Under the pieces are notes generated by a model. The model ran no database searches. It saw only the letters and a list, made by a program, of their open reading frames with translations, and was not told the DNA's origin. From the UHGV virus genome UHGV-0198106: a stretch of 64,000 nt of DNA, one strand, 5' to 3'. Source of the DNA: a virus. Shown in pieces: positions 5,477 through 19,372 of the stretch. Each line of letters begins with the position of its first letter. The first letter of the stretch is position 1. The position numbers were made by a program, and so were the translations under genes.

Positions 5477-8434
5477 ATGGCTCTCTACCCAATAAAATCT
5501 TTGGGTGCGGTTGGTGTTATTGCCGACCAATCTCCTACAGATCTGGCTCCTAATGCATTCACCAATGCAATCAATGCTCGGTTTGTAGAACAACGCGTCT
5601 TTAAAACGGGGGGCTCTGCCCCTCTTTCTTACGTCGAGAGTGATAAAGAAATAAAACCATTATCATTCACTTCAATGCCTTTTGACTACTTCAGTGCTAA
5701 CAAAAGTTTCTTACTAGTAGGTACAGATAAGAGTATTTTTAGGTTAAATAATGAATCTATGGTTGATGTTAGTCGAAGAGTGGCTACAGTTACCAAAAAA
5801 GCTGTGTCTTATATTAAAATCAATCCTGTATTAACAGAGATCATCCCTAAAGAAACATCTGTCATTATGAATTTTAATGAAAGCAAGATTCTCGAGGTAT
5901 CTCTTCTTCCAGAGGGTGTTACTTCTCCATCCCTCGTGTGGGAGGTTAGTAACCCTTCTTATGGCTCAATACTAGTTGACCCTGTCGATAGTAAGAAAGC
6001 TACATTAAGCGTCTTGTCTAATGAGGGAAGCTTCACTGTCACGATCTCTAATGAAGATGAATCTGTGACTACCAGCATTTCCGTAAGGGTTGTCGATTCG
6101 GATTCTGGTATTTTTCTTAACCGAGATTCTGTGCAACTACGAAAAGGTGGAACAACCACTCTTACAGCAACAACAAGTAAGACTCCACTAACATGGACTT
6201 CTTCTAACCCAGCCATTATCTCTGTAGCACCTAACGGTGACACTACTACAGCAGTGTTAACCGCTCAAGGGGTAGGTAATGCGCTGATAACTGTAAGCAA
6301 CGGGTCTAAGACCTCAGAATGCTCTGTTAGTGTTATTAATCAGATTGACAGTATATCTTTAAGTCAAACAGATTTACAGATTAACCGTGGGACGTCTTAT
6401 GTTCTGTATGCTAGCCTAATCCCATCAAATGCTGCAAATCAGAAAATAACTTGGACTTCCTCTAACCCAAACATTGCTACTGTTTCGGGAACAGGTCTTC
6501 AAGGCACTGTCTCTGGACTCACAGCTGGATTTACAGTTATAACAGCAACCACGGAAGAAGGGGGGAGAGCAGCCACTTGTAATGTTAGGGTTGAGTTATC
6601 AAGCAGAACTCTTTTTGCTGCTGCATCAGCTCCTTCTGAAGAATCCAGTTCTATGGATTCAGGTATCGACACCTCATCAATGTCAGAGGGAAACCCTTTT
6701 TATGATTACTCTATGGTTGATGGCGTTGAAGCTTATTCGATAAATGAAGCTATGTCTAGGTCAACTCAGCTTGAATCCTTAACTCTTGACATTGTGGATA
6801 CCGAAATTGATGTTGGGGATGAATTAGTAATAACTGCAACGGCATTCCCTGAAGGGGAGTATCTTTATAATTGGGTGGTAGACCAGCCGGGGTATCTATC
6901 CTCTACCTCCACTACCGACCCTTCTTTTACCTTAACTGCTATTAAGACTGGCAAAGTGAAGATAACCTGCACTGCTAGTCAAGTAGCTCGTAGAGATTAT
7001 GAAGCATTTGAGGAGTATCCCTGGTATAATACGATCATCTCTAACTGCGCAGTATTCACTACTCACTACGAAACCCCTCAAGTAAAAGAGTTTGCCTCTG
7101 AGTATTTCACAGATCTTCCGGGGTGGGGTGAGCAAACAATAGTTGATGCTAACGGAAATCCATCTGTTGTGAAATATAACTGGAAGTGCGAGAGGATTCG
7201 TGCATTTAATAATCGCCTATTTGCTCTTAATATGCGAGAGTCTAATGCATCAGGGGTTACTACTCATTACCCTCTTCGCCTTCGCTGGTCTAACTATGCT
7301 AATGAGAATAAGGCACCTACTCTATGGGATGATTTTGCTTATGATAGATATGTGACTTCAGACTTAGCAGCAAATGTTGTAGGACAGACTGAGGCTCTGG
7401 AAAATGGGTATGCCGGGTATATAGATCTAGCTGACTCAAATGGTAGTTTAGTTGAGATTCTTCCTCTTAAAGATTACCTGTTTATCTATACAGAGTTTGA
7501 GACTTACATTGGATCTCCAACTAACAACACATATCAGCCACTGATGTTCAAGAAACTATTCAATGATTCTGGAATCTTAGCACCTGAGTGTGTAGTTGAA
7601 GTTGAAAGTGGTCACTTTGTTGTTACTCAGAATGATGTTATTCTACACAATGGTGCAACCAAGAAGTCTATTGCATCCAACAGGGTCAAGAATATGCTTA
7701 TCAATGAGGTGTGTTTAGTAAACCCTTTAGCCACTAAGGTTCATCTGCATCAGGATAAGAAGGAAGTGTGGATCCTCTATGTTGGTCCCGGAGAACCTGC
7801 TGGGAGTTTTGCTTGTACAAAAGCTGCTGTATGGAATTATGAGTTTGATACATGGTCTTTTCGTACAATTCCATTCTCTCATTGTATTGGTTTAGTGGAT
7901 CCTCCGACTTTAGAGAAAGGTCCTACTTGGGTTGATTTCCAAGAGTATACTTGGGATGATCCATCAATTAGTGAGCTTGTGTGGAGAAAGGATTCTACTA
8001 ACTTCCGTCAGAGAGTAACTGTAGTAGGTTCTTGGATGAAAGGTTTTTACCAAGTAGACATAGGCCCTTATGACTATTCTTATGATAGGCTGAATGACAT
8101 TGTTGTCAAAAAGCCTTTAGAGATGAGACTGGAAAGAACTGGTATTGATTTTGACAATGTAACTAATGAATGGAATCAGAAGCACATAAATCGATTCCGT
8201 CCACAAGTAACAGGGTCGGGTACCTACATATTCCAAGCTGGCGGTAGTCAGTATTCGGACCAGGAGGATAGGCATATCCACAGTGAAAAGCCTTATATAA
8301 TTGGTGTGGACAGGCATGTAAGCGTCCGACTGAACCATCCGTATCTATTCTATAATGTTATAGATAATGATGTTAACAGTAATGCAGCTATCAATGGGTT
8401 AACTATTGAGTTTGCTGTTGGCGGGCGAAGATAA
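5477..8434 (+). CDS. large virion protein with Ig-like (Big_2-type) repeats
   Basis: 985 aa; AAGGAGG then ATG; repeated ~80-aa segments of the type VTAQGVGNALITVSNGSKTSECSVSV in residues ~200-380. Confidence 0.5.
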   Translation: MALYPIKSLGAVGVIADQSPTDLAPNAFTNAINARFVEQRVFKTGGSAPLSYVESDKEIKPLSFTSMPFDYFSANKSFLLVGTDKSIFRLNNESMVDVSRRVATVTKKAVSYIKINPVLTEIIPKETSVIMNFNESKILEVSLLPEGVTSPSLVWEVSNPSYGSILVDPVDSKKATLSVLSNEGSFTVTISNEDESVTTSISVRVVDSDSGIFLNRDSVQLRKGGTTTLTATTSKTPLTWTSSNPAIISVAPNGDTTTAVLTAQGVGNALITVSNGSKTSECSVSVINQIDSISLSQTDLQINRGTSYVLYASLIPSNAANQKITWTSSNPNIATVSGTGLQGTVSGLTAGFTVITATTEEGGRAATCNVRVELSSRTLFAAASAPSEESSSMDSGIDTSSMSEGNPFYDYSMVDGVEAYSINEAMSRSTQLESLTLDIVDTEIDVGDELVITATAFPEGEYLYNWVVDQPGYLSSTSTTDPSFTLTAIKTGKVKITCTASQVARRDYEAFEEYPWYNTIISNCAVFTTHYETPQVKEFASEYFTDLPGWGEQTIVDANGNPSVVKYNWKCERIRAFNNRLFALNMRESNASGVTTHYPLRLRWSNYANENKAPTLWDDFAYDRYVTSDLAANVVGQTEALENGYAGYIDLADSNGSLVEILPLKDYLFIYTEFETYIGSPTNNTYQPLMFKKLFNDSGILAPECVVEVESGHFVVTQNDVILHNGATKKSIASNRVKNMLINEVCLVNPLATKVHLHQDKKEVWILYVGPGEPAGSFACTKAAVWNYEFDTWSFRTIPFSHCIGLVDPPTLEKGPTWVDFQEYTWDDPSISELVWRKDSTNFRQRVTVVGSWMKGFYQVDIGPYDYSYDRLNDIVVKKPLEMRLERTGIDFDNVTNEWNQKHINRFRPQVTGSGTYIFQAGGSQYSDQEDRHIHSEKPYIIGVDRHVSVRLNHPYLFYNVIDNDVNSNAAINGLTIEFAVGGRR

Positions 8435-8438
8435 TAAC

Positions 8439-8470
8439 AAGGGAGCTTCGTGCTCCCTTTTCTTGTTTAT
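8439..8470 (+). terminator. rho-independent terminator
   Basis: AAGGGAGC-ttcgt-GCTCCCTT stem-loop followed by TTCTTGTTTATTG, directly after the 985-aa gene. Confidence 0.7.
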
Positions 8471-8484
8471 TGTAAGGAGGTTCT

Positions 8485-9453
8485 ATGGGTGCTGGTGGCT
8501 TTCGTAAGAATACCGGAAGAAACAACACAACACAACCTTATAGTGTGGGCTTTCTAAACACCTCTGAGAGTGTAGAAACTAATAACGTTGCAATATATGA
8601 TGAACTCCAGAATATTAGTACTGCAACTAATCAAATGTTCCAAGCTATAGATGAAATCCATGAGGAGATTGATGTTCGTATTAAAGCCCTTCATGCTATG
8701 AATTTGCAATTCGATGAACTAGAGAACCGTGTTACGACAGAGATTGAGACTGCCATTGCAGATATCATAACACAAATGGGTAATCTATCCACCGATGATA
8801 TTTGGGATAATTCGGTTAGCCCTCCTGTCAAATTGGATTCAACTATGTCTGGTATTAAGACTTCAATAGAAGGCAATACGGCATCTATTCAAACTGTTGA
8901 AGGTATCGTCAATGATCAAGGACAAGAGATTGCCCTTATTCAATCTGATTTAACGAATGGGACAGGTAGTGCTTCTCAGTATATGAAACTAACTGAGTAT
9001 GAAGCTACTTGGGGTGTTAATTCCACAGTAAATGGTAAGACAGCAGGGGTAAAGTTAACAAACAATGGATCTATAAGCCAATTCCAAGTAACAGCTGATA
9101 AGTTTGTGGTATCTGATGGCACATCAGGAAGTACACCATTCAAGGTTGAGAACGGTAGGGCTGTTATGGAGTTTGCTGACATTACTAACGTAGTTATCAC
9201 CTCTGCTCAAATTGCAACTGCGACTATTGAGTGGGGACAGATTACTAATGTATCAATAACCAACGCTCAGATCCAAAGTCTATCAGCGGATAAAATAACA
9301 GCCGGTACAATGTCAGGGACTAACTGGAGATTCACCGTTGGTGGTGATTTTGTTATGGGTGGTACAGGTGGGGCACAGTTGTGGATGAATGGAAACAGAA
9401 TAGACTTCTACGATGGAAGTGGTGCTCTGAGAATTAGAATAGGGAGTTGGTAA
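8485..9453 (+). CDS. virion structural protein (fibre-like)
   Basis: TAAGGAGG then ATG; internal short repeats (ITNVVITSAQI / ITNVSITNAQI); Gly-rich C-terminus. Confidence 0.45.
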   Translation: MGAGGFRKNTGRNNTTQPYSVGFLNTSESVETNNVAIYDELQNISTATNQMFQAIDEIHEEIDVRIKALHAMNLQFDELENRVTTEIETAIADIITQMGNLSTDDIWDNSVSPPVKLDSTMSGIKTSIEGNTASIQTVEGIVNDQGQEIALIQSDLTNGTGSASQYMKLTEYEATWGVNSTVNGKTAGVKLTNNGSISQFQVTADKFVVSDGTSGSTPFKVENGRAVMEFADITNVVITSAQIATATIEWGQITNVSITNAQIQSLSADKITAGTMSGTNWRFTVGGDFVMGGTGGAQLWMNGNRIDFYDGSGALRIRIGSW

Positions 9454-9454
9454 T

Positions 9455-10486
9455 ATGGCATATGGAATATGGGCACAACCAGTAGGGCCGGGGCCAGCAA
9501 CCCCTGCTCCCTTATTTATTGATAGCGGAAGTACTTTCCCTCAGTTCAAGAATAGTATAAGAGGGAGTTTTAACTTTAATGGAGCTGGGAGATCTTTCCC
9601 TATTAGTGGATGGGATGGTAGTGGTCAGATAATTATTGTCCCCACTGGTTCTCTGTGCTGGCAATGGGAAGTCCCTCCTAACTTAGTCCCTGATGTTTAT
9701 TGTGTAAATAACATCTATGTAGAAAATGCCTCATCTTTTAGGGTTACTCTGAACCAGAATCCTGGCAGTAACCCCCTGTTTGATTGTGGGTTCAACGTTT
9801 ATCAAATTTGGCCTAGAGCTGATAGGAATTACGGAATCACTTTCTCAAATACAGCAGACTATTTTTCCATATCAGATGCTGGAGTTGTTGGTCAATGTAT
9901 TTGGGCTTGGCAGGGGGTCATAAACAATGCCCTTCAGATACCAAATATCGGTGGGTTCAATATGGCAAACGCTGTTGTGTTCGCTAACTGGTCTGATGGA
10001 GGTCTTGGCCTGTCTTACACATCTGATGACAGAGTTATTCGTGTCTACCAGAACAGACCTTACGTAAACGGCAACACTAATGAGGGTGGTTCAGTGTTTG
10101 CTAGAGTTGCAGTATTCTGCAATGGGGCAGGGGTTCCGGAACATAATGGAGGTTTGAATATCTACTCTCCGGGTACCACACAATGTGTCTTCTCTACTAA
10201 CAGAACACCTTTCACTGTGGATACTTTTATAGGCTCAGGAGGTGGTAACACTGGAATGTCATACCCCATGATACCTCTTACCTCTGGAATAGGTGCAATA
10301 AAAGGCCAAGGCAGTGGATGGAGATATCAGCAAATGAGATCTCACACCATGAGTGGTTCTGCGATAGGAACTGGCTATGGAAGGTATCTGTTTCAGTGGG
10401 ATCAAAATTACGACCTAGGAGCTGACACTGTAGTTAATTTATCGGTTCCTGTAATAAATGCAGCTAAGGTTTTTGCTGGACTATAA
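9455..10486 (+). CDS. virion structural protein
   Basis: ATG 1 nt after the upstream stop (coupled); Gly/Asn/Ser-rich beta-type composition; position in virion module. Confidence 0.45.
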   Translation: MAYGIWAQPVGPGPATPAPLFIDSGSTFPQFKNSIRGSFNFNGAGRSFPISGWDGSGQIIIVPTGSLCWQWEVPPNLVPDVYCVNNIYVENASSFRVTLNQNPGSNPLFDCGFNVYQIWPRADRNYGITFSNTADYFSISDAGVVGQCIWAWQGVINNALQIPNIGGFNMANAVVFANWSDGGLGLSYTSDDRVIRVYQNRPYVNGNTNEGGSVFARVAVFCNGAGVPEHNGGLNIYSPGTTQCVFSTNRTPFTVDTFIGSGGGNTGMSYPMIPLTSGIGAIKGQGSGWRYQQMRSHTMSGSAIGTGYGRYLFQWDQNYDLGADTVVNLSVPVINAAKVFAGL

Positions 10487-10498
10487 CAAGGAGATATT

Positions 10499-11281
10499 AT
10501 GGCAATTAAGATGGGTATTGAAGAACTAGACCCAATGGTTCAACAGGCTTCAAAGAAGTATGGGATTCCTGCTGCTTTGATTCATGCTGTAATCCAAAGA
10601 GAGTCTAGTGGTCGTCCTACGGTGGCTTCTGGAACTGGTCCTGTAGGTTTAATGCAGATTAGTAAGGGGTTGGCTAAAGACTATGGATACAAACTGGAAG
10701 ATAGACTGGACCCAGCAAAGAATATTGACATGGGTGCTCGTTATATCAGAGATAACTTAAAAGCTTTTAATGGCGATGTTAAGAAAGCAATGGTTGGTTA
10801 CTCGGAAGGTATCGGTGGTGCTAAGCAAATGTTCGCTGGTAAAAGAGGGTTTACTCCACAAGCTCTTGACTCTATGAACAATAAACACTTTCTTCCTTTC
10901 TATGGTGATGCAGCTTCTCAGATTGCTAACCCTGTTGGAGCTTTGCAAGCTGTTCAACCAGTTAATCAGTTTAGTCCTGACTTGTTAGATAGAGAGAAGG
11001 CCGCACAAGCTCCGACTCAGGCAGAAATTGCTGCTTCTAAGACTGGTGTTTTAGGTGGCAATCCGGTAGAGTTTTACTCTGATGAAGTGCAAGATGGAGA
11101 AGATCAGAAGCCTCAACAGAACTTTGGTAATGCAGTATTAGGAGTAGCTGCTATGCTTGCAGGTAAACCTCCTACTTCTCAAACAGTTCAGAGGGCAAGT
11201 GCACCACATGCAGCAGGTTCTCAGTACAGTCCACAAACACAGGCAGTGCTCAGACGTTTGGCTAGCATTGGTGTAAAGTAA
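10499..11281 (+). CDS. lytic transglycosylase (SLT domain) virion protein
   Basis: SLT catalytic region ESSGRPTVASGTGPVGLMQISKGLAKDYGYK; AAGGAG upstream. Confidence 0.8.
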   Translation: MAIKMGIEELDPMVQQASKKYGIPAALIHAVIQRESSGRPTVASGTGPVGLMQISKGLAKDYGYKLEDRLDPAKNIDMGARYIRDNLKAFNGDVKKAMVGYSEGIGGAKQMFAGKRGFTPQALDSMNNKHFLPFYGDAASQIANPVGALQAVQPVNQFSPDLLDREKAAQAPTQAEIAASKTGVLGGNPVEFYSDEVQDGEDQKPQQNFGNAVLGVAAMLAGKPPTSQTVQRASAPHAAGSQYSPQTQAVLRRLASIGVK

Positions 11282-11300
11282 TAATCTTTAAGGAGGACTT

Positions 11301-12353
11301 ATGTCTTTATTTGGAAAATCAGCTTCTAGCAAAACCACAGTAGCCCCTTCCTCTCAGGTTGATGCCCTGCTGAAGCAGATTGTTGCTAATGCTCAGAATA
11401 TGCAGAACAACGATCCGGGATTCATCTCCCAACAGCTGGCTGGGTTTAATGGCAACCAACAGGGTGCTCTGAACAACTTAGCAGCTTCTACTACTCAGAA
11501 GCAATTGGCTGATATGTACACACCTCGTACACAGCAAGGGTTGGACCAATTAAACGCTCTTGCTCAACAGTATCAGAATATTGTTAATGGTGGTGGAGTA
11601 ACGGCTGAAGGGGTTAATAACTTTAGTAAAGGTTTGAATAATTCGGCTCTTGCACAAGCTACTAGCAAAGCAGCTTCTAATGTCTCTCTTGGCAATGGCT
11701 CTGACTCCGGCTCCCTCCGTAGGGCTGCGGCTCAAGGGGCTGCTTTGAATGGTGCTAACACTAACCTGTCTCGTACTATCAGTGGCAAGAACATGGGTGT
11801 AAGTGCTCTTCAACAAGATCAGAACTTCCAGAGAGGTTTGCTTGGTGCTCAGTCTGGTTTAGCTGGACAGAACCTCAATCTTGGTGCCCAAGGTGTTCAG
11901 GCAACTCAACAGGCTATTCAGAATCAACTCATGGCTGGTAATCTACAACAGCAACAAGCCCAAGCTCAAGCTGATATTAATTGGCAGAACGCTATTGGTT
12001 CTCAGCAGTATGGGTGGAATCAGCTTAACAACCAGCTTAATGTATTAAACAGTGTAAGCCCAATGGCTGGGTACACGATTAAGAATGCTGCTCCGGGGGT
12101 TAACACTGGACAACAGCTCCTAGGTGCTGGTATCACTGGATTAGGTATTGCAGGGCGTATGGGTGCTTTCTCTCCTAATCAACAGACTCAGAATGCTTGG
12201 AGTTCCTATAACAACTCAGGTGGGCAATCTGGAATGGCTGGTCCTATGATTGGAGGTTCTAATCTTTCTCAACAGAGAGGTCAGTCTAACTGGTTATCCA
12301 CAGCAGGTAGTAATATCTTAGGTGGTGTCTTAGGGGCATTCGGAGCAAACTAA
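11301..12353 (+). CDS. Q/N/G-rich virion protein (paralog A)
   Basis: AAGGAGG then ATG; low-complexity Gln/Asn-rich; N-terminus MSLFGKSASSKTT and Gly-rich hydrophobic C-terminus shared with the next gene. Confidence 0.5.
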   Translation: MSLFGKSASSKTTVAPSSQVDALLKQIVANAQNMQNNDPGFISQQLAGFNGNQQGALNNLAASTTQKQLADMYTPRTQQGLDQLNALAQQYQNIVNGGGVTAEGVNNFSKGLNNSALAQATSKAASNVSLGNGSDSGSLRRAAAQGAALNGANTNLSRTISGKNMGVSALQQDQNFQRGLLGAQSGLAGQNLNLGAQGVQATQQAIQNQLMAGNLQQQQAQAQADINWQNAIGSQQYGWNQLNNQLNVLNSVSPMAGYTIKNAAPGVNTGQQLLGAGITGLGIAGRMGAFSPNQQTQNAWSSYNNSGGQSGMAGPMIGGSNLSQQRGQSNWLSTAGSNILGGVLGAFGAN

Positions 12354-12365
12354 AGGAGATTTGAT

Positions 12366-13334
12366 ATGGGACTTTTCGGAGGCGGGGGTAGTAAAACTAC
12401 TTCCCAAATGATTCGCCCTGAATACATTCAACAGTATATTGACCAGCTTAACCAACAGATTGGTAATACTAGTTCAGGGGATTATGTTTATCGTGACAAT
12501 GTAGGGTTTAATAACAACCAGACAGAAGCTCTTAATAACTTGGCACAATCTGGCGCTCTAGGAACTCTCTCACAGCAATATATGGATGCAGCAGGTCAAG
12601 GGTTAGGATACCTAGATAATGCCTATAAAGGTTATCAGAGCCTCTCTGGACAAGGTGGGATTACTGGAGAACAGATTGGTGCTCTCGCTGGTCAACTGTA
12701 TGATGATGACGCTGTGCAAGCAGCCATTACAGCTAATAATGAACAGGTTCAACAGAATCTAGCACGTAATGCTCTTCCTCAGTTAGCTCAACAGTATGCT
12801 GGTCAGCAAGGCTCAGGTGCTCGTATGGCTAAATCTTTTGCCCAAGGTGATGCTCTGAATCAGATGCAAGGGCAAGCAACAGATATTACCAACAGTGCCT
12901 ATAACTCTGCTATCAATCAGGCTGAAAGTATCCTCTCTGGTAACAGACAGAATCAGGCAGCTGCTCTCTCAGGTCTTTCTACTATCGGTTCTAATCTTTC
13001 TAACTTAGGTCAGCAAGGTGCTAATTTGTCTCAACAGCAAATGATGAATCAATGGAATGCAGGGTTGCAGCAACAACAGCAACAACAGAATGAATATGAT
13101 AATGCCTACCAGAATGCTCAGAACGCAGCTAATTGGGGATGGCAAGATATCAACAACCAACTCGGTGCAGCAGGTGTACTTAACGGTGCTCTCGGACAAA
13201 CTACAACTACTAAAACATCTGGTGGCAAAGGTGGTTTCCTTGGTGGAGCTATGAGTGGTGCAGCAGCAGGTTCTTCCTTTGGACCTTGGGGTGCATTAGC
13301 TGGGGGCGTGATCGGTGGGTTGGCTAGTACTTAA
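12366..13334 (+). CDS. Q/N/G-rich virion protein (paralog B)
   Basis: AAAGGAG then ATG; N-terminus MGLFGGGGSKTTSQ and C-terminal GALAGGVIGGLAST parallel the upstream gene. Confidence 0.5.
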   Translation: MGLFGGGGSKTTSQMIRPEYIQQYIDQLNQQIGNTSSGDYVYRDNVGFNNNQTEALNNLAQSGALGTLSQQYMDAAGQGLGYLDNAYKGYQSLSGQGGITGEQIGALAGQLYDDDAVQAAITANNEQVQQNLARNALPQLAQQYAGQQGSGARMAKSFAQGDALNQMQGQATDITNSAYNSAINQAESILSGNRQNQAAALSGLSTIGSNLSNLGQQGANLSQQQMMNQWNAGLQQQQQQQNEYDNAYQNAQNAANWGWQDINNQLGAAGVLNGALGQTTTTKTSGGKGGFLGGAMSGAAAGSSFGPWGALAGGVIGGLAST

Positions 13335-13347
13335 TTAGGAGACAAAT

Positions 13348-14997
13348 ATGCAACAGACAACTTACGCTCAGGTCAGAAGTCGTGACCCGAGAAATACTTT
13401 CTATGGTGTTAATCCGGGAGCGGCTTCGGCCTCTCCTTATATGGCGAGACCTACTCAGACAGCAGATATTTCTATGTATCAACGACCTGCTATACCTGCT
13501 GGACTTTCTTCTCTTGTAGGTCAGACTTCAGTCGACTATCAGAATATGTTGAATCCTGTTCAGAGTAACGGGCTTCCTTCTGATATTCCGAATGATGTAC
13601 AACCTCAAGCACAACAGGCTGTAACTCTTCCTGAGTTTGAGAACCAAGAAACCATGCAAGCTGCTGGACTTTCTCCTTCTTCTATTCCTCAAGAATCAGA
13701 ACCTCTTCCGGTAACGCCTCCTACTAAACCGCTAGAAGCTGGTCCTATGGAGTTTACTCCTTCTCAGGTGGAACAGGCACAAGGTGTGATTAACACTCTT
13801 GCTCAAGGACAAGACACTGGTGATGGAATGGCTGCTGCTACTCGTGCTAAAGATCAAGAGCGTGTTAACAATGATATCTTGCAAGTTGCGAAAGCTAAAG
13901 ACCCTTCAGAAGCTTGGAACAAGCTACAGAAAGAGCCATTCTATCAGAACTCTAGTTTCTATACAGGTTTGATGGGTGTTGGTCTTTCAATCATGTCAGG
14001 TAAGTCTCCTATCGAAGCTTTCCAGATTGGTCAAGGTATGGCTAACCAAGACGAGACTAAGAAGCAACTGGAAGCTAACCGTGATGCTTTGATTGAACAA
14101 GGCTTCTCTCAAGACTCAATCGCAGCTGCTATTGCTAACGGAGACCCATCACTGCTGAAGATGAAAGCTGTAGACCCTGCTCAGAAAGAAGCATTGTATG
14201 CTGCTCGTGAAGAACGTCAGAATGCTGAATGGGATAGACGTCAACAGATTCAAGAGCAGACTATGCGTGAGCGTGCTGATGAGACTCGTCGTGCCGCTGA
14301 AGAAAGAGCTAACATGAACTTTGAACGTCAGAAAGAGTTGATTGGCTTCCGTGATAAGGTTAAGGCTGAACGTGCTGAACAAGCTGCTCAGAGTTTTAAC
14401 TTTAACCCGAAAGAAGTTCGTCTTGCTCAGAACACAGCTGAGGGTACAGTTGCTAAGCAGTGGGCAGAGAAAGGTGGTCTGTTTAACCAGTCCAACAAAG
14501 ACTTGGATTTGGCTGACAAGGCTGTTAAGGATAAAGACTATCAGACAGCTCGTTCTGCTTACATGCAGGCTATCATGAACTCCGCAAGGGCTGAAATTGG
14601 TGCTACTCGTTCTCTTACCGAAGAAGACTTGGGGCACTTTGCAGAAGACCCATCAATCTTCATTCGTGTTGGCAACAAGTTTGCACTGAAGTCTGGATGG
14701 CGTCCTACTGATGCTGCTCTTTCTTATGCTCGTAAGCAAGCTAACGTTGGTCACACCTCTGCAATGAAAGGTGTTGCTGATGCTAAGAAAGCGACAATTG
14801 AAGCTTACATCGGTTCTGGTATGGATAAGAAGAGAGCTACTGCATTGGTTAACCGTGCAATTCCTTCTGGTGGTTTCTATGACCCTCTAGGTGTTTTCTC
14901 TGAGCAAGCGGAAGAATCTGTTGGGGGTGCAGCAACCAACCCTAAGCTTAATGGTGCTTTATCAGCTGTCGAAGACACTAGCTGGTTCACGCAATAA
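13348..14997 (+). CDS. virion protein, function unknown
   Basis: 549 aa; TTAGGAG upstream; Pro/Gln-rich N-terminal part and charged helical C-terminal part. Confidence 0.5.
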   Translation: MQQTTYAQVRSRDPRNTFYGVNPGAASASPYMARPTQTADISMYQRPAIPAGLSSLVGQTSVDYQNMLNPVQSNGLPSDIPNDVQPQAQQAVTLPEFENQETMQAAGLSPSSIPQESEPLPVTPPTKPLEAGPMEFTPSQVEQAQGVINTLAQGQDTGDGMAAATRAKDQERVNNDILQVAKAKDPSEAWNKLQKEPFYQNSSFYTGLMGVGLSIMSGKSPIEAFQIGQGMANQDETKKQLEANRDALIEQGFSQDSIAAAIANGDPSLLKMKAVDPAQKEALYAAREERQNAEWDRRQQIQEQTMRERADETRRAAEERANMNFERQKELIGFRDKVKAERAEQAAQSFNFNPKEVRLAQNTAEGTVAKQWAEKGGLFNQSNKDLDLADKAVKDKDYQTARSAYMQAIMNSARAEIGATRSLTEEDLGHFAEDPSIFIRVGNKFALKSGWRPTDAALSYARKQANVGHTSAMKGVADAKKATIEAYIGSGMDKKRATALVNRAIPSGGFYDPLGVFSEQAEESVGGAATNPKLNGALSAVEDTSWFTQ

Positions 14998-15017
14998 GAC
15001 CTAAGTCCTGCCTTCTA

Positions 15018-15026
15018 TAATGTATA
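15018..15026 (+). promoter_or_regulatory. TAATGTATA motif upstream of the 1,435-aa gene (candidate phage-specific promoter element)
   Basis: Exact 9-mer ~40 nt upstream of the start codon; the same 9-mer recurs at 23543-23551 and as reverse complement at 23471-23479. Confidence 0.3.
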
Positions 15027-15064
15027 TAGGGGGTAGGACATTTTTATTTATAAAAGGAGACGTT

Positions 15065-18000
15065 ATGGCTAACATTAAACCGTGGGAAGAAGCTTCCAAA
15101 GCTCCTGCGTATCTGAATGCCTCTCCGGAGCGTCAAGCTCAAATGAGAGAACAATATAAGGCAGCAGGTGGCTCTATTCCTGAGGAACAACCAGTAGCAC
15201 AACCACAACAAGAAGAACGTGGTGCTATAGGTGAGTTTGCTCAAGGTGTGTCAAATGCTCTTCAATCTGGTGGTGCAAATATCTCTGCTAATCTTGCTAG
15301 AGGTATTGGAGGCTTAGTTGAGATTGGTGAAGATCTAACTGGAGCACAAACTGGTTACGGGAAGCGTATGCAAGAGAACGCTCAAAACCTCTTGAAAGAA
15401 CGTATGGATAAGATTGAGGATGGGATTGGTAAGTCTGCTGGTCAGTATGCTGGGGTGGTTGCCGACATTGGTCTGACAGTTGCTAACCCATTAGCTGCCG
15501 CTGCTATCATTGCAGGTCGTGAGACCGGTCGTGCATATGCAGACCAAACCCCTAAAGAGGGGGAAGATAAGTCTGTTCTAGATGCAGCCCTAGTTGGTGG
15601 TGCTAACTATGCAGCTCAAAGAATCCTTCCGGGTGCTGTTGGGACAGCTGAATCAGCTCTTGGTCGTATCGGTCAGAACGTTGCTAGTAACGCAGTGGCT
15701 GGTGCTAAAGGTGGTGCTCTTGTTGGTGCTGCTGAGGTTCAGAACAAATATGGTGATGACAATGATCTAGCTAAGACATTGGAAGGTGTTATAGAAGAAG
15801 GGGCTATGGGTGCTGCATTTGGTGGCGCAGTTGGTGGAGTTCATGGTTTGATTAGCCGTCCGGATTCTGCTGTCTTCAAGAACACTCCAGAGTATGCGAA
15901 GACTGATATTGCTGCTGATGACGAACTGATTCGTAGTGCTAAAAATATTGATGAATTGAAAGAAGCTTACTCTAAAGCTGAAACTGCTAACGCTGCTTCT
16001 GCTCTGAATCTTCTGGATGAGAATGGATTCCGTATTACAGATGCTGTTGCTGTAGATTCTCCTGCTGCTCAGCGTATTCTTAATACTGACCAAGCTCGTG
16101 CTGAGAAAGCTGCTTCTGTTCAGAAAGAACATTCCAATATTCCTGGCCTTAATCCTTTAGCTTCTCCTGCTAAGACTCGTGGTAAAGCTTTCGCTGATAA
16201 TGAGCACAACCAGAAACAGGCTGTTGCTATGAAGGATGCGATGGCTGACTACACCAAAGACAACACGAAAGCTCTTACAGATGTTCTAGATAACCTAGAC
16301 CGTGAATTAACTTCTCTCCGAGCTTCTGGTGATTTTACTGGTAGTCCGATTGATATTAAGAATCGTACACAAGCTGACCGTGATTTCATTGATGCTTACA
16401 AGACTTTCTACAATGAAGCAAATCGATTCAAAGCTCGTGAAGGTGAAGATTTTAATAACTTTGTAGAGAAAGCTACTGAACTACAGAAGATGGCTGATAA
16501 TGTTTCTCCAGAGATGAAGAAAGCTATCGGTGGGTTGAAGAAACTGAAAGGTATGCCTGAAGGTTTTAATCCTATCCAAGATGCTTACACTCTGAACAAT
16601 ACGGCTAAGTTCATGAGCAACCAAGATCGTGGCTGGACTTCCCTGACTGATGATGGCTTCCGTGAGGCTTCTTCTCCTAGTCTGGTAATGAATACTCTCG
16701 GTGCTGCTAAATATGCTCTGAATCGCTTCTCTTCTCAGCGTGCTCGCTCTCAACGTGTTAAGCAACAAGAATCTAACAGTGAAGCTATCCGCTCTTTAGC
16801 TCGTGGTGATTTGGAAGTTGCTCGTGCTAAATCTACTGCTGATGAAGCTCGGGCTAAGATGGAAGAAGAACCAGTTGTTGATGACATTAAATTTAAGACT
16901 CAAAATGATGTGGAAACCGAACCGGTTCGGGAGCCTTCTTCTAGTACTGTGACGGAAGAAAATCTTCCTTCCTCTGCTCCTCAAGAAACCCCTCTTACGG
17001 CTCGTGATTTAGTTGCTCAAAGACGCGCAGTTAAACAGGCAGAACAACGTCGTGCTCAAGAAGAGGCCGCACAGGCTCCAGAACCAACTGTAGAGGAACC
17101 AACAGTCAAAGCTGAGCCATTACCTGCCCGTGCTCCTAAAGCTCCTAAGGAAGCTGTACAGGACGTTAAACCGGCAAGTGGTGTAGAACGTTTAGCTGCT
17201 ATGTCTAGTGCTGCTCGTCAGGCTACTAAAGATCGTGCAGAACGTTTTGCTCGTTCTCTGTACTCTAAAGCTGCTAAGGCTAAAGCTACTGCTGAAAACT
17301 TCTTGGCTTATAAAGGTGACCCTAAGGAATTGATGCGTCGCATTCGTCAGGAAGATAATGCTATCAACACTGAACGTCATGAAGAAATGGCTCGTAACCA
17401 GCTAGCTTCTCAGCAAGGTATTGCTACTGCTAAGAACAACACTGTACGAACTAATTTTGCTGAATGGGTTAAGGAACGTGGTCTACCAGAAGACATTGCT
17501 ACTAAGGCATTACGTGCTGAGGAGAAAGGTTTAGGTGGGAACGTGACTAACTTGGATAGTCTGAAACGTCGTGCTGAAAGATTGTATCAGAAGCAGCGTG
17601 AGGATGAGTTTGATAGGTTGTATCAACAAGCTCTAGAAGAGAACAAAGCTTTTGATAGGAAAGATGCTCCTAAACTGGTTGACCAGAAGAAAGAGCTTCA
17701 GTCTGAGATTGATGCTTTGATTGATTCAGAACCTTTACGTCCTGCTCAGAAAGATGCTATGCGTAAGTTGATGAATGACTTTGTAGATGGGAAGTTTAAA
17801 TCTTCAGAGAAGGCTGGTAGGGAGGAGGCTTTGGAAGTTGGTCAGATGAAGGATATTTGGGATGGGTTTATTAACACCTATAACAGAGAAGTGAATGCCT
17901 TCAATAAAGCTAACAAAAACTCTCAGTACGAAGCTTTTGCTAAACACATACAAGCTCGTGAAGAACGTCTTGCTACTCTGAAAAACAAAGCTCAGGCTCG

Positions 18001-19372
18001 TTCAGATGCTAAGGCTGCTGTTGAGAATGAACGTAAAACTCTAGAGGCTATTGCAGCTCAGAAGAGTGAGATTGAGAAGATGATGGAAGGTTTACCTAAA
18101 CCTGTTCGTGAGGCTCAGGAATCTCGTACATTGAAACAGTTGGCTGCTCACCACGATAAGAACTCTCCAGTTCCTCCAGAGAAGTTCCGTAGTTACATTG
18201 AACGTATCCATAACGCCGAGTCAGATTACCTTGATCGTCAGCGTCGTTTAACTGATGCAGAGGAAGATGCTCGTCAGGCTAAGTGGAACAGGATGTATGA
18301 GCAAGCGGAAGAAATGAACCGTAAGTTTGATGTGGACAAGAGAGTTAAGCGCAGTGAAGAGCTTAAAGCGGCCCAAGAGCGTGAGAATGATCTTATGGCA
18401 GTACAACGTCAACGTGATGATATTCATCGCCGCCTGATGCGTACTATGGAAGATAAGGGCATATCTAGAGAGGATGCTGAAGCATTTGCTGGTTCCTATA
18501 TGGATAACCGTTATGCACTTCTTGAGAAGCCTATGACTCCGACTGAGCATCAGAATGCTCGTTCTCGTATCGAGGCTGATGTTGAGAAGTTTGCTAAGAA
18601 GTACGAATCAATGACTCCTATCGAGAAAGAGATTGTTAAGGTTACTGGAGATACTGAAGGTAAGCTTGATAACTTGGATGCGGATACTAGGAAGGCTGTT
18701 GAGGAGGCTCAGAAGGTTGACTCTGATATTAAGAAACTGCAAGAGGAAGAGTTGGAGATGGAGAAGGTTCGTTCTGCTCTGCCTGACGATGAAAGATCTC
18801 AAGCAAGTTCCGATATCTTGGAAAGTATCAAACAACAGGAAGAAGCCTTTGCTGATAAAGCAGAGAAAGCTTTCTTAAATGGGAAGAGCTTAGATGAGTT
18901 AGTCAGTGTGGCTGAAGTTTTAGACAGGGTTCATGGTGCTGACAAGGCTGGTAACAACCGTCGCTTTGTACGTGCATTGCAGACTGCTGCTGAAAACAAG
19001 AAGAAGTATGGTGATAATCCAGTAGCTTGGTTTAGTGCTGATGATTATTCTGCCATTGCTAAACTTGGTGCTTCTTCCGCAGGTGGTAACAAATCCAGAG
19101 CACTGGAGAAGATCTTTGGTTCTACAGCTGAACAGGCTAAGAGTAAGTTGCTTGGCAGGGATGATGTAGCGAAGATGAGACGCGTGATTGAAGAGAACCC
19201 TGATATTAAGATTCCTTCTTACAAGACAACGAATCGTACTGAGTACTTACAGTTCTTGGAGAAGTTTAATGACGAAGGGAAGCCGAAGATTAAACGTGGC
19301 TCATTGTCAGAGAAGCTTGAACGCAGTAAGCGTCAATCGAGACTCCGTGTAAGAGTTCGACCTAAGGAGTGA
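15065..19372 (+). CDS. large alpha-helical virion protein (internal/ejection-type candidate)
   Basis: Track ORF 15020..19372 trimmed to ATG 15065, which follows AAGGAG at 15054-15059; 1,435 aa, highly charged Ala/Glu/Lys/Arg-rich coiled-coil-type sequence. Confidence 0.55.
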   Translation: MANIKPWEEASKAPAYLNASPERQAQMREQYKAAGGSIPEEQPVAQPQQEERGAIGEFAQGVSNALQSGGANISANLARGIGGLVEIGEDLTGAQTGYGKRMQENAQNLLKERMDKIEDGIGKSAGQYAGVVADIGLTVANPLAAAAIIAGRETGRAYADQTPKEGEDKSVLDAALVGGANYAAQRILPGAVGTAESALGRIGQNVASNAVAGAKGGALVGAAEVQNKYGDDNDLAKTLEGVIEEGAMGAAFGGAVGGVHGLISRPDSAVFKNTPEYAKTDIAADDELIRSAKNIDELKEAYSKAETANAASALNLLDENGFRITDAVAVDSPAAQRILNTDQARAEKAASVQKEHSNIPGLNPLASPAKTRGKAFADNEHNQKQAVAMKDAMADYTKDNTKALTDVLDNLDRELTSLRASGDFTGSPIDIKNRTQADRDFIDAYKTFYNEANRFKAREGEDFNNFVEKATELQKMADNVSPEMKKAIGGLKKLKGMPEGFNPIQDAYTLNNTAKFMSNQDRGWTSLTDDGFREASSPSLVMNTLGAAKYALNRFSSQRARSQRVKQQESNSEAIRSLARGDLEVARAKSTADEARAKMEEEPVVDDIKFKTQNDVETEPVREPSSSTVTEENLPSSAPQETPLTARDLVAQRRAVKQAEQRRAQEEAAQAPEPTVEEPTVKAEPLPARAPKAPKEAVQDVKPASGVERLAAMSSAARQATKDRAERFARSLYSKAAKAKATAENFLAYKGDPKELMRRIRQEDNAINTERHEEMARNQLASQQGIATAKNNTVRTNFAEWVKERGLPEDIATKALRAEEKGLGGNVTNLDSLKRRAERLYQKQREDEFDRLYQQALEENKAFDRKDAPKLVDQKKELQSEIDALIDSEPLRPAQKDAMRKLMNDFVDGKFKSSEKAGREEALEVGQMKDIWDGFINTYNREVNAFNKANKNSQYEAFAKHIQAREERLATLKNKAQARSDAKAAVENERKTLEAIAAQKSEIEKMMEGLPKPVREAQESRTLKQLAAHHDKNSPVPPEKFRSYIERIHNAESDYLDRQRRLTDAEEDARQAKWNRMYEQAEEMNRKFDVDKRVKRSEELKAAQERENDLMAVQRQRDDIHRRLMRTMEDKGISREDAEAFAGSYMDNRYALLEKPMTPTEHQNARSRIEADVEKFAKKYESMTPIEKEIVKVTGDTEGKLDNLDADTRKAVEEAQKVDSDIKKLQEEELEMEKVRSALPDDERSQASSDILESIKQQEEAFADKAEKAFLNGKSLDELVSVAEVLDRVHGADKAGNNRRFVRALQTAAENKKKYGDNPVAWFSADDYSAIAKLGASSAGGNKSRALEKIFGSTAEQAKSKLLGRDDVAKMRRVIEENPDIKIPSYKTTNRTEYLQFLEKFNDEGKPKIKRGSLSEKLERSKRQSRLRVRVRPKE

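Follow-up and report, generated by a model that had tools for sequence, protein, structure and literature searches.

Tandem paralogous Gln/Asn-rich ejection proteins of a Kuravirus and their possible place at the outer-membrane end of the DNA-delivery channel

The 64,000-nucleotide stretch of the virus genome UHGV-0198106, analysed here as a whole (the window), carries two adjacent plus-strand genes, designated A and B, that encode proteins of unusually high Gln and Asn content. A and B very probably are ejection proteins, and more likely than not they build the end of the DNA-delivery channel that lies at the outer membrane. The ejection-protein identity has already been published for their orthologues in phage SU10; new here are the paralogy of the two genes, their remote homologies, their fused relatives, and the reading of their composition. 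The paralogy, the composition, the Gly-zipper hairpin, and the remote homologies go unmentioned in the SU10 and Kuravirus literature that was searched, including PMC4281155, PMC9509320, and PMC9965538. Of all parts of short-tailed phages, the ejection proteins are understood least, and phage therapy counts Kuraviruses among its candidates.

The region 10400-15100 revealed 92-95% DNA identity to about 70 Escherichia/Shigella phages of Kuravirus (Gordonclarkvirinae), including myPSH2311, ES17, SU10, NJ01, and phiEco32, and the window itself represents a Kuravirus with about 95% DNA identity to SU10, ES17, and myPSH2311. At the amino acid (aa) level, A is 98.9% identical to SU10 gp21 and B is 98.8% identical to SU10 gp22, with equal lengths (350 and 322 aa), and the gene order from gp17 to gp24 is the same as in SU10. 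In that phage, gp17 is the nozzle, gp18 the tail needle, gp19 a hypothetical protein, named 'membrane protein' in RefSeq, that went undetected in virions, gp20 the transglycosylase, gp21 a protein of 350 aa, gp22 a 322-aa 'DNA injection/ejection protein', gp23 a protein of 551 aa in RefSeq and 515 aa in Supplementary Table 1 of PMC9509320, and gp24 a protein of 1473 aa. On the strength of the high identity and the conserved neighbourhood, A and B can be assigned as the orthologues of gp21 and gp22, respectively.

The virion proteomics proposed as a check in the sequence-only reading, an earlier description of this DNA made without database searches, is available for the orthologues. Mass spectrometry (MS) of purified SU10 virions detected gp21 with 53.4% coverage (11 peptides) and gp22 with 49.1% coverage (5 peptides) (Mirzaei et al. 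2014, PMC4281155), and both are entered as SU10 virion proteins by Siborova et al. (2022, Supplementary Table 1, PMC9509320). The SU10 proteins gp20, gp21, gp22, and gp23 are present in the virion and absent from genome-release intermediates, and on the basis of that loss the ejection proteins are said to lengthen the nozzle so that a channel crosses the periplasm (PMC9509320); a taxonomy paper on Kuravirus gives the same ejection-protein assignment (PMC9965538). These data were published for SU10, and from the identity of about 99% we infer the same virion location and release for A and B. The suggestion that the two genes encode internal or ejection proteins, possibly of an envelope-spanning conduit, is therefore supported and matches the published account of the near-identical SU10 orthologues.

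Both genes lie in the list of open reading frames (ORFs) exactly where the sequence-only reading had placed them, directly downstream of a gene whose product contains a Pfam SLT domain. Comparison of A and B by BLASTP with compositional adjustment revealed 30% identity over 269 aa (E 4e-13). Despite the biased composition, the Smith-Waterman score of 277 far exceeded those obtained after global shuffling (94.5 +/- 12.4, z 14.7) and after shuffling within 20-aa windows (111.4 +/- 13.3, z 12.5); therefore, the paralogy of A and B is genuine and not a composition artefact. A contains 26.6% Q+N, 13.7% G, 13.1% A, and only 6.6% charged residues (K+R+D+E), while the corresponding values for B are 25.2%, 15.5%, 13.4%, and 8.7%. 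Among the 57 ORFs of the window that do not overlap and have 100 aa or more, for which the medians are 9.2% Q+N and 25.4% charged residues, A and B have the two highest Q+N and the two lowest charged fractions. Gly-rich hydrophobic C-terminal segments were found at residues 271-290 and 331-350 of A and at residues 289-322 of B. The similar N-termini, Q/N/G/A-rich cores, and Gly-rich hydrophobic C-termini described earlier were thus recovered by alignment, composition, and hydropathy.

Both proteins evolve under strong constraint: the ratio of nonsynonymous to synonymous substitution rates (dN/dS) relative to SU10 is 0.028 for A and 0.023 for B, the lowest values in the cassette. Conservation of both families reaches to members only about 40% identical, with columns that remain invariant across the families over that range. 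The least variable segments are the N-terminal 20 or so residues of both families, residues 241-260 of A, where the block QLNNQLNVLNSVSPMAGYT has the lowest entropy (0.53 bits), and residues 261-320 of B, comprising the junction and the Gly-zipper hairpin, the latter being the most conserved part of the B family. The Kyte-Doolittle hydropathy of the first hydrophobic segment of A, which follows the conserved block, is +0.79. Far from being absent from virions and unconserved, the two proteins, with dN/dS of 0.02-0.03, belong to families with MS-detected virion members.

Over nearly their whole lengths, A (residues 1-350 on profile positions 1-392, E 5.1e-118) and B (residues 1-310 on positions 1-321, E 3e-109) match phrog_4287, annotated 'DNA ejection protein'. 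A search of PDB sequences with the single sequences and with the A1 and A2 profiles gave no match, only chance scores at E>0.5. A word-indexed search of 5.8 billion proteins found only about 50 relatives each of A and B, reaching down to about 40% identity, and throughout this range of divergence A-type proteins share their contigs with B-type proteins. When 1.84 billion cluster representatives were searched exhaustively with a profile, 356 proteins were retrieved at E<=1e-3 and only 23 at E<=1e-30.

Many of the weaker matches are proteins of 900-1600 aa in which the module is N-terminal (residues ~5-300), and several of these long relatives still reach phrog_4287 at 1e-20 to 1e-32. In P0111 (L008 10001-13930) the N-terminal module is accompanied by an SLT domain at 635-725, and in P0092 (L009 9834-13295) by Peptidase_S74 at 300-350 and Hydrolase_2 at 536-654; both are located in podophage structural modules encoding SU10_adaptor-family proteins. 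The same motif as in the QLNNQLNVLNSVSPMAGYT/LLGAGITGLGIAGRMGAF region of A is present in the long relatives P0091 and P0111. Such long forms are Rosetta-stone fusions, in which the module is joined to a lysin that Kuraviruses encode as a neighbouring gene. The long forms of uncultured podophages (P0111, P0092, P0091, P0135, and others) also bear further hydrophobic Gly-rich segments.

Outside Gordonclarkvirinae, the cultured phages with this family are Grimontviridae and related prolate podophages (for example Proteus Privateer, Cronobacter A24, and Aeromonas BUCT695). Among the neighbours of the Privateer and A24 genes, a further phrog_4287-like copy was looked for and not found, and the tandem duplication is a feature of the Kuravirus-type lineage, because the Grimontviridae relatives have one copy. 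It is also old, because an SU10-like structural module on a contig labelled E. coli has both genes, with a B-type product 44% identical to B. This module (L006 8122-15875; GCA_023211535.1, DAHCAP010000002.1, 389 kb; also L007) comprises SU10_MCP, terminase, and SU10_portal, followed by SLT and by proteins of 334 aa (A-like), 322 aa (B-like), 498 aa, and 1113 aa. The element has no match in 5,426 complete E. coli genomes, and it may represent a relative of the strictly lytic Kuraviruses that is prophage-like or otherwise resident, or else an assembly artefact.

The single-copy relatives A24 gp89 (L003 5866-7098), Privateer gp18 (L002 5869-7098), P0072, P0092, and P0096 have a lysine-rich C-terminal tail (…GWW-SDASMKK…YDWEWN…GVLAQ…VDY) resembling the auto-cleaving intramolecular chaperone Peptidase_S74. 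The corresponding Pfam scores are E 1.8e-4 for A24, just at the cut-off, 2e-9 for P0092, and 6e-9 for P0096, with Privateer and P0072 below threshold. If an ejection protein contained an S74 domain, its folding would be trimer-assisted and it would cleave itself immediately behind the Gly-zipper.

A link to a predicted channel protein was provided by Bruynoghevirus. The B-family profile (alignment A2) matched LUZ24 gp53 (313 aa) with hmmsearch E 1.1e-6 (Z=1000), and hhalign aligned 216 columns, covering B 63-314, with a probability of 92.7% (E 4e-7). Independently, LUZ24 gp53 matched phrog_4287 at E 2e-10, and the B-type metagenomic protein P0062 matched the LUZ24 gp53 family phrog_7477 at E 1e-5. 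Taken together, these profile matches identify the B family as a remote homologue of LUZ24 gp53, at the superfamily level and not as a member of phrog_7477. LUZ24 gp53 precedes virion proteins of 505 aa (gp51) and 1055 aa (gp50) and contains 16.3% Q+N, 17.6% G, and 13.7% charged residues. In Pa223, the proteins gp56 (313 aa), gp54, and gp53, of the same sizes and order as the LUZ24 set, are all present in virions; gp56 is predicted to be a gp14-like outer-membrane channel with transmembrane helices 278-291 and 296-311, and the closest structural relatives of the Pa223 adaptor and hub are those of SU10 (bioRxiv 10.1101/2025.06.11.659172). The two predicted helices of gp56 coincide with its Gly-zipper hairpin.

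A shorter similarity connects the C-terminus of B with P22 gp7. An hhalign comparison of the two families paired only the last 30 columns with gp7 residues 195-227 (score 41.5, probability 73%, E 3e-5), with LGGAMSGAAAGSSFG-PWGALAGGVIGGLAS of B set against SGAIAGAGLAKLIGSSTPWGAAIGGGIGLLGS of gp7. No shuffle scored as high, whether all gp7 columns (100 shuffles, maximum 29.0) or the last 45 columns only (100 shuffles, mean 25.0, maximum 34.3) were permuted; residue order matters here, and not composition alone, because 41.5 exceeds every column shuffle. BLASTP of A and B against P22 gp7 returned nothing, and the P22 gp7 family did not match LUZ24 gp53 (probability 3%). A and B are not members of the Pfam family P22_gp7 (PF25688, gathering threshold 28 bits), which matches neither of them even at E<=10 and scores P22 gp7 itself at 428 bits. 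The Pfam glycine-zipper families Rick_17kDa_Anti and Gly-zipper_YMGG reached the C-terminal 69 aa of B only at non-significant E of 2.2 and 8.4, and the relative P0077 scored E 0.0024 against a glycine-zipper family, missing the cut-off.

In situ cryo-electron microscopy (cryo-EM) described in a September 2026 preprint showed that P22 gp7* is a dodecamer in which each subunit folds back and contributes two helices to a 24-helix extracellular bundle on the tail hub, held by a Gln/Asn hydrogen-bond network; of the 36 outer-membrane pore helices, 24 come from the V-shaped C-terminus I191-F229 of gp7 (bioRxiv 10.64898/2026.09.03.749273). In P22 gp7*, the C12-on-C6 symmetry mismatch is met by alternating 'outer' and 'inner' conformers.

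Similarity to the internal virion proteins of T7-like phages, a comparison recommended by the sequence-only reading, was not detected: the A1 profile found nothing at E<10 among T7 gp13-16 and P22 gp14, gp20, and gp16, and A and B had no matches to T7-type PHROG families. A gp14-like, gp15-like, gp16-like order, as in T7 and P22, is found in other podophages (PMC8954989). The assignment of A and B to the outer-membrane end is supported because the order of SLT, A/B, 549-aa, and ~1450-aa genes parallels this order (PMC8954989) and that of LUZ24 gp53, gp51, and gp50. By position and synteny, the gp23 orthologue is a candidate for the periplasmic tunnel, while the gp24 orthologue, by position and size, is a candidate inner-membrane or cytoplasmic component. 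This correspondence to LUZ24 rests on synteny and size, because BLASTP of gp23 and gp24 against LUZ24 gp51 and gp50 gave nothing significant. Coupling to cell-wall lysis is supported because the module is fused N-terminally to SLT in P0111 or to Hydrolase_2 in P0092.

Taking these data together, we propose the following course of events. A and B would be made late and packaged in the prolate head with the DNA, alongside gp20, gp23, and gp24. Once the tail needle gp18 is released, they would be expelled ahead of the DNA via the portal, adaptor, nozzle, and tail channel, and their near-absent charge and helix-compatible Q/N/A/G composition may allow transit of this narrow channel in an extended form. 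Outside the virion, the Q/N/A-rich cores of about 250 residues could refold as a helical-bundle tube of several subunits that docks at the nozzle tip, with Gln and Asn side chains providing an inter-helix hydrogen-bond network. The C-terminal Gly-zipper segments would insert in the outer membrane as short helical hairpins and form the pore of the trans-envelope channel, a role like that of P22 gp7* and that predicted for T7 gp14 and Pa223 gp56. Peptidoglycan would be cut by gp20, and gp23 and gp24 would carry the channel across the periplasm and the inner membrane. A and B probably co-assemble.

A more elaborate version, which we regard as quite doubtful, is that A and B assemble obligately into a hetero-oligomeric channel of the outer membrane and the extracellular space, for example with six A and six B subunits on the six-fold nozzle. 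In such an assembly the duplication would have hard-wired the two gp7* conformer positions into two proteins, the Q/N 'polar zipper' would serve reversible unfolding, and the auto-cleaving Peptidase_S74-type chaperone tail that a single-copy ancestor would have needed would have been lost by the duplicated pair.

Several points weigh against an outer-membrane channel built of A and B. No resolved density for ejection proteins was observed in SU10 cryo-EM (PMC9509320). The outer-membrane role of Pa223 gp56 is a prediction by AlphaFold3 and MemBrain (bioRxiv 10.1101/2025.06.11.659172), and LUZ24 gp53 is taken as its equivalent from genus, size, and gene order, not from an alignment. The A-family profile did not match LUZ24 gp53, so that A is tied in only through B, and in hhalign the A family did not match the P22 gp7 family either. 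The relation of B to P22 gp7, confined to 30 Gly-rich columns at a probability of 73%, is at most a shared or convergent C-terminal module. No Pfam family was matched by A or B, P22_gp7 and those of the Gly-zipper among them. The oligomeric nature of the channel, insertion in the outer rather than the inner membrane, and hetero-assembly are all features that we infer. Foldseek with the model of B found 0 matches in the PDB, and the confidence of the AlphaFold2 monomer models was low, with a pLDDT score (the predicted value of the local distance difference test) of 39.4 for A (16-sequence alignment) and 44.7 for B (68-sequence alignment). Low monomer confidence is expected of proteins that fold only as large oligomers, and disorder is also compatible with it.

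From the AlphaFold2 monomer models, the secondary structure alone was used. In both models the core is all-alpha, with helices extending to about residue 252 in A and about residue 274 in B, including 151-189 and 199-274, while the Gly-rich C-termini are unmodelled. The structure and disorder prediction suggested earlier as a check thus yielded an all-helical secondary structure at low confidence (pLDDT 39 and 45). A specific fold is favoured because the position-specific conservation and low dN/dS are unlike a constraint on composition only. Of the properties of prion-like domains, Q/N enrichment and low charge were observed, while composition-driven conservation and disorder were not. The description of the composition as prion-like and unusual holds in part: A and B are outliers among the ORFs of the window, but their composition is typical of the ejection-protein class (P22 gp7, LUZ24 gp53), and the conservation and predicted helices oppose prion-like disorder. 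These features argue that the composition is functional and not prion-like junk, and we read it as that of a hydrogen-bonded helical bundle.

Accordingly, we consider it highly improbable that the Q/N regions are disordered and form an amyloid, gel, or condensate in the capsid, acting as a plug or DNA-organising matrix with no defined channel. The Q+N content of 25-27% and very low charge, extreme in the window, would be in line with such a state, as would the low AlphaFold2 confidence and the SU10 heads without ordered density. Against this, dN/dS is 0.02-0.03 with position-specific conservation to about 40% identity, long helices are consistently predicted, a search for internal repeats in A and B found none, and the compositionally similar P22 gp7* is an ordered dodecameric helical bundle with specific Q/N hydrogen bonds.

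An unlikely, but more probable, alternative concerns the membrane involved: the Gly-zipper segments may enter the inner membrane, or A and B may line the periplasmic part of the channel, while the outer-membrane pore would come from the nozzle together with the short fibres, or from a different protein. The 28-nm nozzle of SU10 could by itself extend as far as, or through, the outer membrane (PMC9509320), and Gly-zipper helices are generic membrane-insertion elements; the matches to two-transmembrane Gly-zipper families are weak and non-significant. However, the gene order places A and B at the gp14-like position, before the proteins of 549 aa and 1450 aa; all relatives to which a role has been assigned, namely P22 gp7* (by experiment) and Pa223 gp56 (by prediction), are outer-membrane components; and the short hairpin arms of about 12-15 residues fit the thin hydrophobic core of the outer membrane, as in gp7*. 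It is also very unlikely that the channel is built of one paralogue only and that the second, as a chaperone, assembly factor, or packaging adaptor, enters the virion incidentally. Such a division of labour is suggested by the Grimontviridae Privateer and Cronobacter A24, which manage with one copy, and by the Peptidase_S74-like chaperone tail of some single copies (A24, P0092, P0096), which points to folding help. Yet both SU10 proteins are found in virions at comparable coverage and both are lost on genome release, and A and B both keep the N-terminal motif and the Gly-zipper segments under equally strong purifying selection and co-occur on the same contigs over the whole range of divergence. 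The placement of A and B at the outer-membrane end is our preferred reading, and the links to the Bruynoghevirus channel, P22 gp7*, and the lysin fusions give a testable outer-membrane assignment that SU10 cryo-EM could not resolve.

The features of the locus are summarised in Table 1.

Table 1. Features of genes A and B and of the ejection-protein cassette in the window
Feature	Position	Strand	Remarks
SLT lytic transglycosylase gene, SU10 gp20 orthologue	10499..11281	+	First of the five-gene ejection-protein cassette; immediately 5' of A
Shine-Dalgarno AAGGAGG of gene A	11290..11296	+	Sequence read; strong site
Gene A, 350-aa Q/N/G/A-rich protein, very probable ejection protein, SU10 gp21 orthologue	11301..12353	+	Start MSLFGKSASSKTT
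N-terminal conserved motif of A, M-S/G-LFG...S-K-T-T-V-x-P, common to B	11301..11360	+	Low column entropy in family alignment; A/B alignment
Q/N-rich core of A, predicted all-alpha, ~residues 18-252	11352..12056	+	AlphaFold2 secondary structure, low confidence, pLDDT 39
Most conserved block of A, QLNNQLNVLNSVSPMAGYT (residues 241-260), then first Gly-zipper hydrophobic segment LLGAGITGLGIAGRMGAF (273-290)	12021..12170	+	
Second Gly-rich hydrophobic segment of A, C-terminal, WLSTAGSNILGGVLGAFGAN, residues 331-350	12291..12350	+	Kyte-Doolittle hydropathy +0.80; kept in A orthologues
Shine-Dalgarno AAGGAG of gene B	12353..12358	+	Sequence read; strong; overlaps the A stop codon
Gene B, 322 aa, paralogue of A, SU10 gp22 ('DNA injection protein') orthologue	12366..13334	+	Start MGLFGGGGSKTTSQ
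Q/N-rich core of B, predicted all-alpha, ~residues 19-274	12420..13187	+	AlphaFold2, 68-sequence alignment, low confidence; alignable with LUZ24 gp53
C-terminal Gly-zipper hairpin of B, GFLGGAMSGAAAGSSFGPWGALAGGVIGGLAST, residues 289-322	13230..13331	+	Proposed V-shaped helical hairpin inserting in membrane
549-aa ejection protein gene, SU10 gp23 orthologue	13348..14997	+	phrog_12130; 87.6% aa identity to SU10 gp23, dN/dS 0.21
~1435-aa ejection protein gene, SU10 gp24 orthologue	15065..19372	+	phrog_14629; 97.1% aa identity to SU10 gp24, dN/dS 0.069

The product of the SLT gene matched Pfam SLT at E 1.7e-23 and phrog_12507 at E 1.8e-175 and is 97.7% identical in aa sequence to SU10 gp20. For the gp24 orthologue, the mechanical ORF starts at 15020, and an ATG preceded by a ribosome-binding site (MANIKPWEE) is probably the real start. 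Overlapping or antisense ORFs at 11550-11816 (-), 13005-13199 (-), 11881-12048 (+), and 13057-13254 (+) were without support and were disregarded. Between the tail needle and SLT genes lies the gp19 orthologue (9455-10486, plus strand, 343 aa), which belongs to Pfam DUF6453 and phrog_1265 ('membrane protein') and contains only 9.9% charged residues and 13.4% Gly.

The divergence from SU10 is mosaic. In the span 5477-9453, the nozzle gp17 has only 74% aa identity, with synonymous sites saturated, and gp18 has 82.6%, with a synonymous divergence (dS) of 1.6. Set against this span, 10499-13334 is much closer: gp19-gp22 and gp24 are 96-99% identical to SU10 with dS of 0.18-0.36, gp23 being an outlier with its dN/dS of 0.21. 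The pattern points to recombination, or to nozzle and needle genes having been replaced in response to host range.

Between gp23 and gp24, at 15005-15048, a hairpin with a 15-bp stem (15005-15039) is followed by TTTTTATTT and has a terminator-like appearance; its loop contains, at 15018-15026, the phiEco32 gp36-sigma late-promoter consensus TAATGTATA without a mismatch (consensus from PMC8948821). Four exact copies of TAATGTATA occur in the window, with 0.77 expected by chance, while matches with one mismatch are at chance level (22 versus 20.3). A sigma-70 promoter scan found 17 sites in comparison with 19.3 in shuffled sequences, which is no excess, and a terminator scan found 12 versus 8.7. 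Since the terminator-like hairpin and the exact late-promoter motif lie 5' of the start at 15065, gp24 may be transcribed separately from gp20-23. Another element, at 8439-8459 between the nozzle and tail-needle genes, is a perfect GC-rich hairpin with an 8-bp stem (AAGGGAGC-ttcgt-GCTCCCTT) and T-runs on both strands, resembling a bidirectional terminator within the late operon.

Among known systems, SU10 gp21 and gp22 have the same lengths and the same neighbours as A and B, with the SLT gene gp20 upstream and gp23 and gp24 downstream, and show no substantive difference from them. Privateer gp18 and A24 gp89 likewise belong to phrog_4287 (E 1.8e-98) and match the A1 profile at E 1e-29 to 1e-30, and Privateer gp18, like the orthologues of A and B, is a virion protein by MS followed by ~555-aa and large virion proteins; unlike A and B, these are single-copy proteins of about 410 aa with 17-21% charged residues and no adjacent SLT gene. 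LUZ24 gp53 and Pa223 gp56 share with B a similar size, richness in G, Q, and N, a C-terminal Gly-zipper hairpin, and a location in the virion. The position of LUZ24 gp53 ahead of mid-size and large ejection proteins, in a phage whose adaptor and hub are like those of SU10, also resembles that of A and B, while it differs in being single-copy, in the SLT gene not being adjacent, and in an N-terminal region that is not alignable.

The T7 ejectosome follows the same general plan as the A/B cassette, with a small membrane protein, then a mid-size tunnel protein, then a large protein, and with an associated lytic transglycosylase (PMC8954989). In contrast to Kuravirus, the SLT domain of T7 is carried by gp16 and not by a separate first gene, and the T7 internal proteins form an ordered core stack, none of which is visible in SU10 (PMC9509320). 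P22 gp7, an all-helical ejection protein that is N-terminally processed by the host OpdA, resembles A and B in composition (17.9% Q+N, 14.4% G, 17.0% A, and 10.5% charged residues) and in its first position in the ejection-protein operon, and its C-terminal Gly-zipper hairpin aligns with the C-terminus of B; unlike A and B, it is a 229-aa protein encoded by a single gene, with no similarity seen outside the last 30 residues.

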